Assembly (NCBI GenBank): GCA_963806095.1
Contig: CAWDWV010000002.1
Span: forward strand, 1,054,281-1,118,280
DNA length: 64,000 nucleotides
Reading direction: 5' to 3'
DNA from: Thermoanaerobaculia bacterium
GTDB lineage: Bacteria; Acidobacteriota; Thermoanaerobaculia; Multivoradales; JAIOJS01
Part shown: in pieces, positions 43,596-48,018 of the stretch
Numbering within the stretch: position 1 is the first letter of the stretch
How the letters are laid out: each line of letters opens with the position of its first letter
Notes under the pieces: model-generated
The model's input: the letters and a program-made list of their open reading frames with translations, nothing else
What the model was told of the DNA's origin: nothing
Database searches by the model: none
Made by a program: the position numbers and the translations under genes

Positions 43596-44186
43596 TCAAC
43601 CGGGCTCGGGCGCGGCGTCGCCGCGAGCCAGCTCCTTCTGCAGGAACGCTCGCGCCGCCCGCGTGTCGCGCTTGACGGTGGGCTCGGAGACGCCGAGCAG
43701 CTCGGCGATCTCGGCCACTTCCAGGCCGCCGAAGAAGCGCAGCTCCACCACCTGGGCGAGCCTCTCGTCGAGCGCGGCGAGGCGTTGTAGCGAACGGTCG
43801 ATGTCGAGCAGCTGCTCGGCCTGGTCGTCGACGGCCAGCGGGCCGCCGGCCAGGGCGTCGACCGGCACGTGCTCGGCGCCGGCGCCGCGGCGGTCGGCAA
43901 GGCGCGCGCGGGCATGGTCGATCACGACCTGGCGCATCGCCCGCGCGGCGGTGGCGAAGAAGTGCTTGCGGTTCTCGAAGCTCATGGCCCTGCCGGCGAA
44001 GAGCTTGAGGTAGGCCTCGTGCACCAGCGCCCCGGTGTTGAGCGTGGCGCCTCGCCGGTGGCGGGCCAGCTCGGCGCGGGCGATACGCTGCAGGTCGGCA
44101 TAGACGATCTCCAGGGCCCGCGCCTGGCGTACCGGGTCGCTGTCGGCGCCGAGCGCCCGCGTCAGGTCGGTCTCGCTCTTGGCCAC
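43596..44186 (-). CDS. ECF-type RNA polymerase sigma factor (STK-associated ECF43-like subgroup suspected)
   Basis: Sigma-2 region (LVHEAYLKLF, FFATAARAMRQVVIDHAR). Sigma-4 HTH (VVELRFFGGLEVAEIAELLGVSEPTVKRDTRAARAFL). Confidence 0.85.
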   Translation of the reverse strand: MAKSETDLTRALGADSDPVRQARALEIVYADLQRIARAELARHRRGATLNTGALVHEAYLKLFAGRAMSFENRKHFFATAARAMRQVVIDHARARLADRRGAGAEHVPVDALAGGPLAVDDQAEQLLDIDRSLQRLAALDERLAQVVELRFFGGLEVAEIAELLGVSEPTVKRDTRAARAFLQKELARGDAAPEPG

Positions 44187-44306
44187 TCTGTTTGCCCATC
44201 CTAGTCCTGGAGCGCTCGCCGGTGAGCCGCGCCATCTCCGGATCGCGCGGATGCCCTACGTGGACGAGCGTCGCTGAAGGCGCCCCAAACCCGAAAGGAA
44301 CCCGCC

Positions 44307-44615
44307 ATGAAGAAGCTGATCGTCGGTACGGTGCTGGCACTCGCGGTCGCAACCTTCCTGCCCCGGGCGGCCTCGGCGGGGATCTGGGAAAACGGCGTCT
44401 GGGGCAACGGCATTTGGGAAAACGGCGTCTGGGGCAACGGCAACTGGTCCAACGGCATCTGGTCCAACGGCGCCAACCCCACCGCCATGAGCGATGGCGC
44501 TGTCCTCCAGGGCGGTCAGCGGCCGGCCGGTCCGCAGTGCACCGAGCGCGGCGTCGACTTCTCGGCGGTGCCGCTCGCCAAGGTGACCGTGAGGCTGCCG
44601 CAGCCGGCACGCTAA
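44307..44615 (+). CDS. Small secreted protein with a six-fold tandem W-x-N-G pentapeptide repeat
   Basis: The signal peptide MKKLIVGTVLALAVATFLPRAASA is followed by GIWENGVWGNGIWENGVWGNGNWSNGIWSNG. The underlying DNA is a 15-nt periodic repeat (ggcatttgggaaaacggcgtctggggcaac x2...). Confidence 0.55.
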   Translation: MKKLIVGTVLALAVATFLPRAASAGIWENGVWGNGIWENGVWGNGNWSNGIWSNGANPTAMSDGAVLQGGQRPAGPQCTERGVDFSAVPLAKVTVRLPQPAR

Positions 44616-45465: not shown

Positions 45466-45483
45466 CATCGCTCCACCACCGTC

Positions 45484-48018
45484 ATGCACATGGATCCCGA
45501 ACGCTGGCGCCGGGCGCGGGCGCTCTTCGAAGACCTCGCCGATACGCCGCTCGCGCAGTGGGAGACGCGCCTCGCCGAGCTTTGCCCCGACGACGCAGAG
45601 GTGCGGCGAGAGGCGCTCGCCTTATTGCAGGCCGACCTCGCCGCCGCCGGCTCGACCGACGTCGGCGACCGTGCGCGGGCGGCGGTGGCCGACCTCGCGG
45701 CGCGCGACGAAGCGGCATGGAGCCAGAGGCTGGTCGGCGAGCGCGTCGGCCCCTATGCGCTGGTGCGCGAGCTCGGCCGCGGCGGCATGGGCGCGGTGTG
45801 GCTCGCCGAGCGCGCCGACGGCGAGTTCGAGCAGCGGGTGGCGGTCAAGCTCATCCGCCCCGGCTGGGACGCCGGCGAGCTACTCGCCCGCTTCCGTGCC
45901 GAGCGCCAGATCCTCGCCGGCCTCACCCACCCCAACATCGCCCACCTGCTCGACGGTGGCGTCACCGCCGACGGCAAGCCCTGGCTCGCGCTCGAGTACG
46001 TCGATGGCGTCGACCTGCTCGCCTACTGCGACGGCGAGCGGCTCGACCTGCTCGCGCGGCTACGCCTCTTCCTGACCGTCTGCGACGCCGTCGCCCACGC
46101 CCACGCGCGGCTGGTGGTGCACCGCGACCTCAAGCCCTCGAACCTGCTGGTCACTCGCAACGGCCAGGTCAAGCTGCTCGACTTCGGCATCGCCAAGCTC
46201 GTCGATCCGCAATCGGGTGCTCTGGGAAAACCCGGCAGCGACGTCAGCGCGCTGCGCGTCTTCACCCCGGAGTACGCGGCCCCCGAGCAGGTCAAGGGCG
46301 AGCTGGTGACGACGGCGGTGGACGTCTACGCGCTCGGCCTGCTCCTCTACGCGCTGCTCACCGGGCGGCGCCCCTACAGGGCCGAGGGCTCGACGCCGGC
46401 GGCCTACGAGCGCGCGATCCTCGACCAGGAGCCGACGCGGCCGAGCCTGGCGGCGACGCGCGAGGAGCCCGAGGCGAGCGCCGCCGGCGAGGTGGCGGCG
46501 CAGCGGCGGCTGACCCCGGAGCGGCTGCGCGAGCAGCTGCGCGGCGACCTCGACGCCATCGTCCTCAAGGCGTTGCGCAAGGAGCCGGCGCAGCGCTACG
46601 CCAGCGTCGCCGAGCTGGCCGCCGACGTCGTCCGCCACCTCGAACGCCGTCCCGTGGTGGCGCGGCGCGGTGGCTGGCGCTACCGCGCGCAGCGCTTCCT
46701 GCGCCGGCACGCGGCGGCGGCGGCGCTCGCGACGCTGGCGTTGCTCGCCCTCGTCGGCGGCCTGGCGGCCGCGCTCTGGCAGGGCGCCGAGGCGCGGCTG
46801 CAGCGCAACGAGGCGCGGATGCAGCGTGACCTGGCCCGCGCCGAGGCGGCGAAGTCGGCCGAGGTGGTCGACTTCATGCTCGAGCTCTTCGCAGGCAGCG
46901 ACCCCGCCGCCGTGCAGCGCAACGACGTCACCGCCCGCGACTTGCTCCAGCGCGGCGTCGAGCGCGTGCGCACGCAGTTCGCCGACCAGCCCGTCGTGCG
47001 CGCCGAGCTGATGACGTCGATGGCCAATGCCTACAACGGCATCGGCCTGCCGCGCGAGAGCACGCCGCTGCTGGAGGAGGTGGTCGACCTCCGCCGCCGG
47101 CTCGGCGAGCCGCGGGCGCTCGCCGGCGCCCTCGTCGTCCAGGCCGGCCTGCTGCGCCAGAGCGGCGAGCGCGACGAGGCGCTGCAGCGGCTGGACGAAG
47201 CCGACCGGCTGCTCGCGGCCGAGGGCGCTAGCGGCGACGAGCAGCGCGAGACGCGGCTGCTGCGCGCCCGCAGCCACTTCGGCCGCGGCATGGTGCTGCT
47301 CAACGACACCGACACCGCGGTCGAGGCCGAGAAGGAGCTGCGCGCCGCCGTCGCCATCCAGCGCGAGCTGCTCGGCCCCGCCGACGAGGACACCCTCGAC
47401 ACGCTGGTGATGCTCGCCCGCACGCTGGGCGCCCAGCAGCGCTTCGACGAGGCGCTGGCGACCATCGGCGAGGTCGTCGGCCGCCTGCGCGCGCAGCGGC
47501 CGCTGCCCAGCAACGACCTCGCCGAGGCGCTGCAGGCGCGCGGCCGCATCTACTGGCGGCAGAAGCGCTACCCCGAGTACCTCGACACCTCGCGCGAGGT
47601 GCTGGCGCTGGCGGAGAAGGCGCACGGGCCGGGCGCCTTCGGCGTCGTCATCTCGCGCCACAACCTGGCGACGGCGCTCTTCTACGTCGGCCGCTACGCG
47701 GAGGCGGTGGGGGAGTCGCGCCAGGCCATCGCGCGCGCCCACGAGCTGCTGCCGCCGACCCACCCGTTCCTGCTCGCCGCCCTCAAGCGGCTGGGCGACT
47801 CCGAGAGCGCCCAGCAGCACTGGCCGGAAGCGGAGGCCGCCTTCGGCGAGGCCCTGGCGCAGCGCCGGGCCGTGGAAGCCGCGAAGCCGGGCAGCGCCGC
47901 GGACGACATCGAGGAGCTCGTAGGGCGCCTCGCGGCGGTGCGCACCCGCACCATCCCCGCCAAGGTCGCCGAGACGATGGCCGGCAACGCCACGCCAAAG
48001 CCGCGCGACGCGACGTAG
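45484..48018 (+). CDS. Ser/Thr protein kinase with N-terminal ECF-sigma-associated helical domain, TM segment and C-terminal TPR array
   Basis: N-terminal domain RWRRARALFEDLADTPLAQWETRLAELCPDDAEVRREALALL. Kinase motifs (GRGGMGAVWLA, VAVKLIRP, HRDLKPSNLLV, DFGIAKL, TPEYAAPEQ). TM LATLALLALVGGLAAALW. TPR repeats follow. Confidence 0.85.
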   Translation: MHMDPERWRRARALFEDLADTPLAQWETRLAELCPDDAEVRREALALLQADLAAAGSTDVGDRARAAVADLAARDEAAWSQRLVGERVGPYALVRELGRGGMGAVWLAERADGEFEQRVAVKLIRPGWDAGELLARFRAERQILAGLTHPNIAHLLDGGVTADGKPWLALEYVDGVDLLAYCDGERLDLLARLRLFLTVCDAVAHAHARLVVHRDLKPSNLLVTRNGQVKLLDFGIAKLVDPQSGALGKPGSDVSALRVFTPEYAAPEQVKGELVTTAVDVYALGLLLYALLTGRRPYRAEGSTPAAYERAILDQEPTRPSLAATREEPEASAAGEVAAQRRLTPERLREQLRGDLDAIVLKALRKEPAQRYASVAELAADVVRHLERRPVVARRGGWRYRAQRFLRRHAAAAALATLALLALVGGLAAALWQGAEARLQRNEARMQRDLARAEAAKSAEVVDFMLELFAGSDPAAVQRNDVTARDLLQRGVERVRTQFADQPVVRAELMTSMANAYNGIGLPRESTPLLEEVVDLRRRLGEPRALAGALVVQAGLLRQSGERDEALQRLDEADRLLAAEGASGDEQRETRLLRARSHFGRGMVLLNDTDTAVEAEKELRAAVAIQRELLGPADEDTLDTLVMLARTLGAQQRFDEALATIGEVVGRLRAQRPLPSNDLAEALQARGRIYWRQKRYPEYLDTSREVLALAEKAHGPGAFGVVISRHNLATALFYVGRYAEAVGESRQAIARAHELLPPTHPFLLAALKRLGDSESAQQHWPEAEAAFGEALAQRRAVEAAKPGSAADDIEELVGRLAAVRTRTIPAKVAETMAGNATPKPRDAT

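Follow-up and report, generated by a model that had tools for sequence, protein, structure and literature searches.

What are two genes for secreted proteins doing between an extracytoplasmic function (ECF) sigma factor and the Ser/Thr kinase that would be expected to control it? This question is raised by a locus in a 64,000-nucleotide stretch of DNA from a Thermoanaerobaculia bacterium (assembly GCA_963806095.1, contig CAWDWV010000002.1, positions 1,054,281 to 1,118,280), which we call the window and to which all coordinates refer unless another locus is named. The sigma factor gene lies on the minus strand (43596-44186, 196 aa). Across a divergent control region (44187-44306), the plus strand carries a gene for a repeat-containing mini-protein (pep; 44307-44615, 102 aa), a gene for a secreted protein with an ADYC motif (ADYC; 44644-45465, 273 aa) and the kinase gene (45484-48018, 844 aa), whose start is ~1.3 kb from that of the sigma gene on the opposite strand, with the two genes in between. 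We favor, with a probability of about 0.6, an interpretation in which an EcfK/PknS-type phospho-signaling pair has a sigma-dependent operon that took in a mobile, secreted two-gene module as cargo. The sigma/membrane-kinase switch is of a type already known; what the literature we could search does not describe is the secreted pep-ADYC pair built into its operon, although this arrangement is shared by at least 16 other species.

The window has a GC content of ~72%, and the reality of its genes was judged by GC bias at the third codon position. By this measure the region from 42.7 to 48.0 kb holds five genes, all with the bias expected of real genes. Every gene claimed by an initial sequence-only reading of this DNA was found where that reading had placed it, and the shared control region, which it had put at ~120 bp, measures exactly 120 bp. 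The three plus-strand genes are separated by 28 nt (pep to ADYC) and 18 nt (ADYC to kinase), spacings compatible with a single operon.

To which kind of sigma factor does this gene belong? Its product matches the Pfam family Sigma70_ECF (PF07638; E value of 1.8e-40) and TIGR02999 (186 bits against a cut-off of 126), and it is 35% identical across 130 aa (E value of 1e-18) to Xanthomonas EcfK, most of which was rebuilt from the peptide tables in PMC13147305. Judged by these three matches, it is a kinase-partnered sigma of the EcfK/EcfP-like, ECF43-like type. We scanned metagenome contigs with an alignment of the sigma and obtained 75 distant relatives, 40 to 53% identical to it. Wherever the downstream sequence extends to 1.5 kb or more (57 of their loci), a Hanks-type kinase is encoded, so that the sigma family is firmly kinase-associated, as had been predicted. 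In 42 of the distant-relative loci the kinase gene directly follows that of the sigma factor, which is the usual order in the wider family, and neither ADYC nor the mini-protein occurs in any of the 75. The layout in the window, which the sequence-only reading had called possibly new, is thus atypical. No anti-sigma domain was detected in the neighboring open reading frames (ORFs) or in the N-terminal extension of the kinase, and the locus accordingly shows the ECF43 hallmark of a co-encoded Hanks-type kinase in the absence of an anti-sigma factor.

The kinase has the architecture of PknS, the partner of EcfK, which consists of an 83-aa N-terminal extension, a kinase domain, a transmembrane helix and three periplasmic TPRs (PMC13147305). 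In the window protein, a helical extension (residues ~1 to 85) precedes a Hanks domain of about residues 91 to 390 (Pkinase match at 91 to 307) with intact VAVK, HRDLKPSN, DFG and APE motifs, followed by one hydrophobic, transmembrane helix (~410 to 432) and a predicted periplasmic TPR domain (~433 to 844; TPR_12/TPR_10), so that each element of the PknS-type layout is present. Residues 6 to 386, extension included, align with the PDB entry 9eed_A (E value of 6.4e-54), a 364-residue chain that matches the crystallized Xanthomonas citri PknS(1-364) construct. The first ~100 aa had been likened to the sigma-interacting domain of kinases that replace an anti-sigma factor. That view lost ground, as a profile of the ~85-aa extension matched only the N terminus of PknS in the PDB (E value of 1e-4) and no family, nor any anti-sigma domain, in Pfam; we therefore rejected its assignment to a known sigma-binding or anti-sigma domain. 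In PknS, the corresponding segment "may play a functional role" and is invisible in the crystal (PMC13147305).

What, then, are the two intervening genes? The ADYC protein is a member of Pfam family PF20032 (E value of 3.6e-49; 167.7 bits against a cut-off of 27), covering positions 1 to 175 of the 176-position profile and including the ADYCGDG motif. It has a signal peptide and eight conserved cysteines, and in an alignment of 81 sequences R179, C183 and G184 never vary, while A180, D181 and Y182 hardly do. Its structure is modeled confidently (pLDDT of 91), and the model has no relative among solved structures. A single search returned 546 homologues at an E value of ≤0.001, and clustering at 50% gave 3,629 representatives. 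Literature searches for the ADYC domain or PF20032 returned nothing relevant on the family, a partner gene or links to regulators. One 411-aa metagenomic protein (P0113) is annotated with both ADYC (PF20032) and PF05940, which may reflect a fusion or a gene-calling artifact.

The mini-protein begins with a signal peptide, MKKLIVGTVLALAVATFLPRAASA (aa 1 to 24), continues with six 5-residue units (IWENG/VWGNG/NWSNG/IWSNG), encoded by a 15-nt DNA repeat present in 6.0 copies at 44382-44471, and ends in a conserved C-terminal tail, C..VDFSAVPLAKVTVRLPQPAR. Its gene has a GC content of 0.88 at third codon positions and an AGGA-type ribosome-binding site before the ATG; we found 19 homologues of the protein, and its exact sequence is present in public records (NCBI, ENA). 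No autonomous fold is predicted (AlphaFold2 pLDDT of 48), and we do not claim a beta-helix fold for it. The window mini-protein has no Pfam match even at an E value of ≤1 and so falls outside the pentapeptide-repeat family PF00805, while some of its Lysobacterales orthologues lie at or near the cut-off of that family (L003; L011 with 27.7 bits against 20.2). NCBIfam holds no family for pep, for ADYC or for the LolA-like ORF described below.

We then surveyed the surroundings of ADYC genes, starting from 280 ADYC-encoding stretches in our genome collection and analyzing the best 80 loci. An ORF that ends just upstream of ADYC and has an unbroken run of three or more period-5 N-[GAS] units was found in 63 of the 80 loci, compared to 1 of 67 at a control position. 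Common to these upstream ORFs are a signal peptide, ~2 to 40 repeat units and a C-terminal tail that is hydrophobic and conserved and ends in ...LP... The close homologues of the window mini-protein (P0121 to P0138) have about 2 to 12 units, and the mini-protein of L081, a contig from a strain-level relative (98.6% identical in its flank), is 117 aa long and has about three more units than its 102-aa counterpart in the window despite this kinship. The repeat block thus changes fast, probably by slippage on the 15/30-nt DNA repeat. The pairing identifies pep and ADYC as a widespread module of two genes, which is found in the absence of this sigma and kinase as well; the pair is not special to the locus.

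Is the combination of module, sigma factor and kinase found elsewhere? In 16 of the 80 loci, ADYC has an orthologue of the sigma and/or the kinase as a neighbor (both in 13); all 16 come from Lysobacterales, where the carriers are Tahibacter, Dokdonella, Luteimonas and Rhodanobacteraceae. Identity to the window proteins in these loci is 59 to 76% for the sigma and 41 to 56% for the kinase, and the sigma gene may be divergent or co-directional; in L081, the gene order is identical to that of the window. The intervening genes are therefore retained in orthologous loci, in agreement with the sequence-only reading. Within the sigma family, only the subclade formed by the Lysobacterales and the window lineage places pep-ADYC between sigma and kinase. 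In Tahibacter genomes, the kinase occurs as tandem paralogues, and L015 also has two tandem mini-protein genes.

The nearest ADYC homologue, 87% identical, is labeled Thermoanaerobaculia, and the next nearest cassette proteins come from Lysobacterales (47 to 76% identity). As the flanks of the window match a metagenome-assembled genome labeled Thermoanaerobaculia (L010; ~80% identical, syntenic with window 39918-54000) and the relatives of the cassette are next found in Lysobacterales, these data suggest horizontal transfer of the cassette as a whole. In L010 itself (5589-8807), the sigma gene is replaced by a ~2-kb insert, the largest ORFs of which suggest, when read by eye, an aminopeptidase-like protein and a PIN-type, toxin-like small protein. 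The kinase gene is deleted from L010, ADYC is apparently frameshifted near its C terminus, and genes for an FtsX-type permease, an ABC ATPase and an amidase directly abut ADYC. This joint decay, a single case, is what would be expected if the parts of the cassette depend on each other.

The sequence-only reading had pointed to the control region as the place to look for an ECF promoter. The sigma-bearing clade has a consensus TGATCC(C/T)TG-N14-CGTA(C/T)GT (equivalent to TGATCC-N17-CGTAYGT) located 60 to 76 nt upstream of the pep ATG, which is carried by 14 sigma-bearing ADYC loci and by L016, where no sigma gene is nearby. The search of 44187-44306 yielded a plus-strand candidate at 44232-44261, in which the -35-like CCATCTCCG (44232-44240) is separated by N14 from the -10-like CCTACGT (44255-44261). 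This copy lies 77 nt upstream of the ATG and ranks third of 127,930 window positions by core position weight matrix score. A contig with a 93% identical sigma (L082) has CGATCTCC-N15-CCTACGT, and the entire 120-bp control region is identical in L081; in L010, it is disrupted, with an altered -35 element and 7 nt deleted from the spacer. Alphaproteobacterial ADYC loci lack the motif, save for a small number of weaker matches, none of them upstream of pep. We regard it as a candidate promoter of the window sigma.

No further convincing copy of the motif was found in the 64-kb window, and we therefore do not propose a wider local regulon there. Among the ADYC loci, the motif recurs ahead of kinase paralogues, of a second pep gene and of genes for other secreted proteins, and the copies at the Tahibacter paralogues suggest that the sigma may have a larger regulon in those species. 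A copy is found before each paralogue in L002 (15798), L005 (9538 and 13396) and L015 (7150/7568/8713), and L031 has a second kinase N terminus (~5524) with a single motif copy (4214). Next to the sigma gene, further copies of the motif precede genes for secreted proteins, which are a DUF5122 beta-propeller protein in L004 (5121-6580) and a protein read as similar in L009 (5312-6760), as well as an unannotated 289-aa secreted protein beside the sigma gene in L007 (6884-5968, minus strand).

These observations can be joined in the following circuit. The kinase would sense an envelope or periplasmic cue via its TPR domain, and its cytoplasmic kinase domain would phosphorylate the sigma factor. 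A sigma that lacks the acidic patch in region 2.2 should, as long as it is unphosphorylated, be a poor binder of core RNA polymerase; in the model for EcfP/PknT, which we adopt here, phosphorylation supplies the missing negative charge and the sigma then binds RNA polymerase (PMC8999054). By analogy with EcfP/PknT and EcfK/PknS, we infer that the window sigma, too, is activated in a phosphorylation-dependent manner. The active holoenzyme would initiate at the TGATCC-N17-CGTAYGT-type promoter in the 120-bp intergenic region and produce one transcript covering pep, ADYC and the kinase gene. The outcome would be positive feedback on the kinase along with induced export, into the periplasm, of the mini-protein and of ADYC with its many disulfides, and the two would act there as a pair. 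As a working guess, ADYC binds or processes the mini-protein through the conserved C-terminal tail.

Does the window sigma have a residue that the kinase could phosphorylate? The EcfK residues that PknS phosphorylates directly are T51, in region 2.2, and T104, T106, S108 and S110, in the linker; the phospho-acceptor threonine is present in 88% of ECF43 members (PMC13147305). In the window sigma, the region 2.2 motif N50-T51-G52-A53 aligns with EAED of SigW and QATE of EcfK; it contains no acidic residue, and the DAED/DxxD patch is thus lost as in ECF43. Among the 75 distant relatives (motif TLQxTALV), the canonical acceptor position is Thr in 71 and Ser in 3. The subclade motif is instead TL(N/D)T(G/R/C)(A/V)LV, in which position 3 is never Thr and the threonine one residue before it, at motif position 2 (T51 in the window), is invariant, while position 2 is variable in the distant relatives (Thr, Pro or Ala). 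By these signatures, the window sigma belongs to a distinct subclade made up of Lysobacterales and the window lineage, and we consider T51 a candidate phospho-acceptor. In the linker, most clade members have Glu or Asp opposite T106 and S108 of EcfK; the window sigma has P108 and D110.

Several observations weigh against the circuit. At the ECF43 phospho-acceptor position (T51 of EcfK; the second Thr of STTA in EcfP), the window sigma has G52 and its clade relatives have Arg or Cys, and the equivalent of the EcfK linker residue T106 is Pro. As the canonical phospho-threonine is missing, kinase control is not simply transferable from EcfP or EcfK. The window copy of the promoter motif is degenerate, as its -35 element begins with CC rather than TG and its -10 element has CCT where the consensus has CGT, and it is putatively assigned to this sigma from its position. 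Three further loci (L083 to L085) have a sigma of this clade, with or without a kinase, and no pep-ADYC; in two of them (L084 and L085) the sigma and kinase genes are divergent with nothing between them. Finally, no adjacent regulator was detected in 36 of the 80 ADYC loci.

Where regulators do lie next to the module, they are of several kinds. A histidine kinase and/or a response regulator is nearby in 28 of the 80 ADYC loci. In Nevskiales, the order is pep, ADYC, hybrid histidine kinase and OmpR-type regulator; in Acetobacteraceae, it is regulator, kinase, pep and ADYC, an order also found, by the positions of kinase and regulator, in Neorhizobium and Asaia. Mesorhizobium has a hybrid kinase and a regulator 1.6 to 3 kb upstream of the pair, and elsewhere pep-ADYC adjoins BTAD-TPR or wHTH-AAA regulators. 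Some of the neighboring histidine kinases are of the cytoplasmic PAS hybrid type, and no convincing membrane helix was seen in most of the adjacent kinases (L058, L065 and L041) or in the BTAD-TPR proteins. Regulators without a membrane helix cannot contact periplasmic proteins, which favors pep-ADYC being a regulated output, with different dedicated regulators recruited to control the pair. We accordingly downgraded a role as periplasmic co-sensor as the general function of the module. At 12074-16542, L058 has a further mini-protein gene, flanked by genes for an OmpR-type response regulator and a second hybrid histidine kinase and lacking an adjacent ADYC gene.

In the window itself, feedback on the periplasmic TPR domain of the kinase is possible though not required, and pep and ADYC might even be there for that purpose, as periplasmic partners of the TPR domain (ligand, presenter or inhibitor) that tune kinase activity and are not its output. 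RseB and CpxP, from other envelope-stress systems, offer a possible comparison. The operon shared with the kinase, with its spacings of 18 to 28 nt, would fit such a role, as would a mini-protein that is predicted not to fold alone and has a strongly conserved C-terminal tail beside hypervariable repeats, since extended or C-terminal peptides are typical ligands of TPR domains; the second pep copy of L058, next to a response regulator and a histidine kinase, points the same way. We nevertheless think this unlikely: a general partnership is impossible in Nevskiales and Acetobacteraceae, where the histidine kinases next to the pair are without a membrane helix, the BTAD-TPR regulators are likewise cytoplasmic, many ADYC loci (the 36 noted above) lack an adjacent regulator altogether, and the sigma-kinase pairs of the same clade in L084 and L085 do without the module. 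A still bolder version would make the mini-protein a secreted pro-peptide whose C-terminal tail, bound or released by ADYC, is the ligand of the periplasmic TPR domain. With a sigma-dependent promoter driving pep, ADYC and the kinase together, this would amount to a self-amplifying peptide-signaling circuit, that is, autoinduction in a diderm, with a logic resembling that of the TPR-receptor peptide systems of Firmicutes. If true, it would differ from those systems in having an extracytoplasmic TPR and sigma phosphorylation as its output; we consider it the most improbable of the schemes discussed here.

The module might also have been inserted by horizontal transfer between a divergent sigma and kinase without any functional or regulatory link to them. 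Its mobility across Alpha- and Gammaproteobacteria and the window lineage, the empty interval between the divergent genes of L084 and L085, and the 47 to 76% identity of the window cassette to Lysobacterales proteins in flanks that match a Thermoanaerobaculia-labeled genome are all in keeping with this. However, the arrangement is retained across several genera and in both sigma orientations, it is pep and not the kinase gene that the conserved motif immediately precedes, and loss of sigma and kinase in L010 is accompanied by decay of the motif and the apparent frameshift in ADYC, so that we find it highly unlikely. We give about as little credit to the idea that phosphorylation control has been lost in the subclade, leaving a sigma that is constitutive or responds to another input and a kinase that acts on other substrates. 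In its favor are the Gly, Arg or Cys at region 2.2 position 3, a position taken by Thr or Ser in all but one of the 75 distant relatives, and the Glu or Asp in most clade members (P108 and D110 in the window) at the T106/S108-equivalent linker positions. Against it, the region 2.2 patch is still non-acidic (NTGA or NTRA), the kinase gene is still linked to that of the sigma under a putative sigma-dependent promoter, and the position-2 Thr, invariant in the clade and variable in distant relatives, looks like the product of selection for a shifted acceptor.

Downstream of the sigma gene, 46 nt away and in the same direction, lies an ORF (42764-43549, minus strand; 261 aa, with a GTG start at 43549 set by homology with L010) that had been described as LolA-like. 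The label is weakly supported: although the N terminus of the product resembles a signal peptide, it scores 23.3 bits with Pfam LolA_like (PF17131), under the 30-bit cut-off, and its best PDB match, the LolA-superfamily protein 3buu, has an E value of 0.09. The ORF is 83% identical in L010 and is present in L081; it was not detected in the Lysobacterales ADYC loci. Rfam and sigma-70 promoter scans of the region gave no match, and it contains three terminator-like sites, compared to 1.5 expected from shuffles.

The wider neighborhood contains several other genes. Just upstream of the locus (40555-41262, plus strand) is a VapBC-like pair of a small RHH-type antitoxin and a PIN-domain toxin, called by Pfam in the near-identical L081. 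At 41239-42120 (minus strand), a Ser/Thr kinase remnant is fused to a PD40/TolB-like beta-propeller gene, with a kinase N-lobe fragment (41832-42029) that passes out of frame into the propeller part; at this point L010 holds ~1.9 kb extra (L010 1937-3819), the rest of that kinase. A DUF892 protein is encoded between the remnant and the LolA-like gene (42089-42709, plus strand; Pfam on the equivalent L081 gene). Beyond the kinase gene and convergent with it are the FtsX-type permease, ABC ATPase and amidase genes (48142-51780, minus strand). A second, much larger Ser/Thr kinase ORF (5293-9300, plus strand; ~1,336 aa) is 31% identical to the kinase of the locus across the kinase domain.

Kinase-activated ECF sigmas have been characterized experimentally in few organisms, namely in Vibrio (EcfP/PknT), in Xanthomonas (EcfK/PknS) and as a Hyphomonas pair. 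The subclade described here has a candidate promoter that is sharply delimited and a local regulon that is minimal, and its shifted threonine is a natural test of how much positional freedom there is in a mechanism in which phosphate replaces the acidic patch. It also gives the ADYC family a first functional handle and context, along with a previously unremarked partner, the Asn-Gly pentapeptide-repeat mini-protein. The existence of cultured carriers, Tahibacter aquaticus DSM 21667 (L002), T. harae and Luteimonas salinilitoris, makes these predictions testable.

How does the locus compare with known systems? EcfK/PknS of X. citri is close in most respects: EcfK belongs to the same Pfam and TIGRFAM sigma family as the window sigma (35% identity), the kinases share their layout and have similar lengths (833 aa for PknS and 844 aa in the window), and in both cases no anti-sigma factor is encoded nearby. 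The two systems differ at the acceptor sites, where T51 and T106 of EcfK are replaced by Gly and Pro and the window Thr is found one residue before the T51 position; in gene order, as the window sigma gene points away from the kinase operon, with two genes lying between it and the kinase gene; and in what they appear to control, since EcfK/PknS lie in and control a type VI secretion cluster (PMC13147305), whereas the window operon carries pep-ADYC. EcfP of Vibrio parahaemolyticus likewise lacks the DAED patch in region 2.2 and has a Ser/Thr kinase partner, PknT (PMC8999054); its motif is STTA, with the second Thr phosphorylated, compared to NTGA in the window. EcfP responds to polymyxin and drives resistance genes (PMC8999054). 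As for the cargo, the window ADYC protein is a full-length, high-scoring member of PF20032, a family that has been named and has no assigned function. The mini-protein shares a five-residue periodicity with the pentapeptide-repeat proteins of PF00805, but its repeat is N-G-hydrophobic-x-x (N-G-I/V-W-x in the window) instead of the canonical A(D/N)LxX, and it differs further in being secreted and very short, its six units corresponding to ~1.5 coils of a pentapeptide-type helix.

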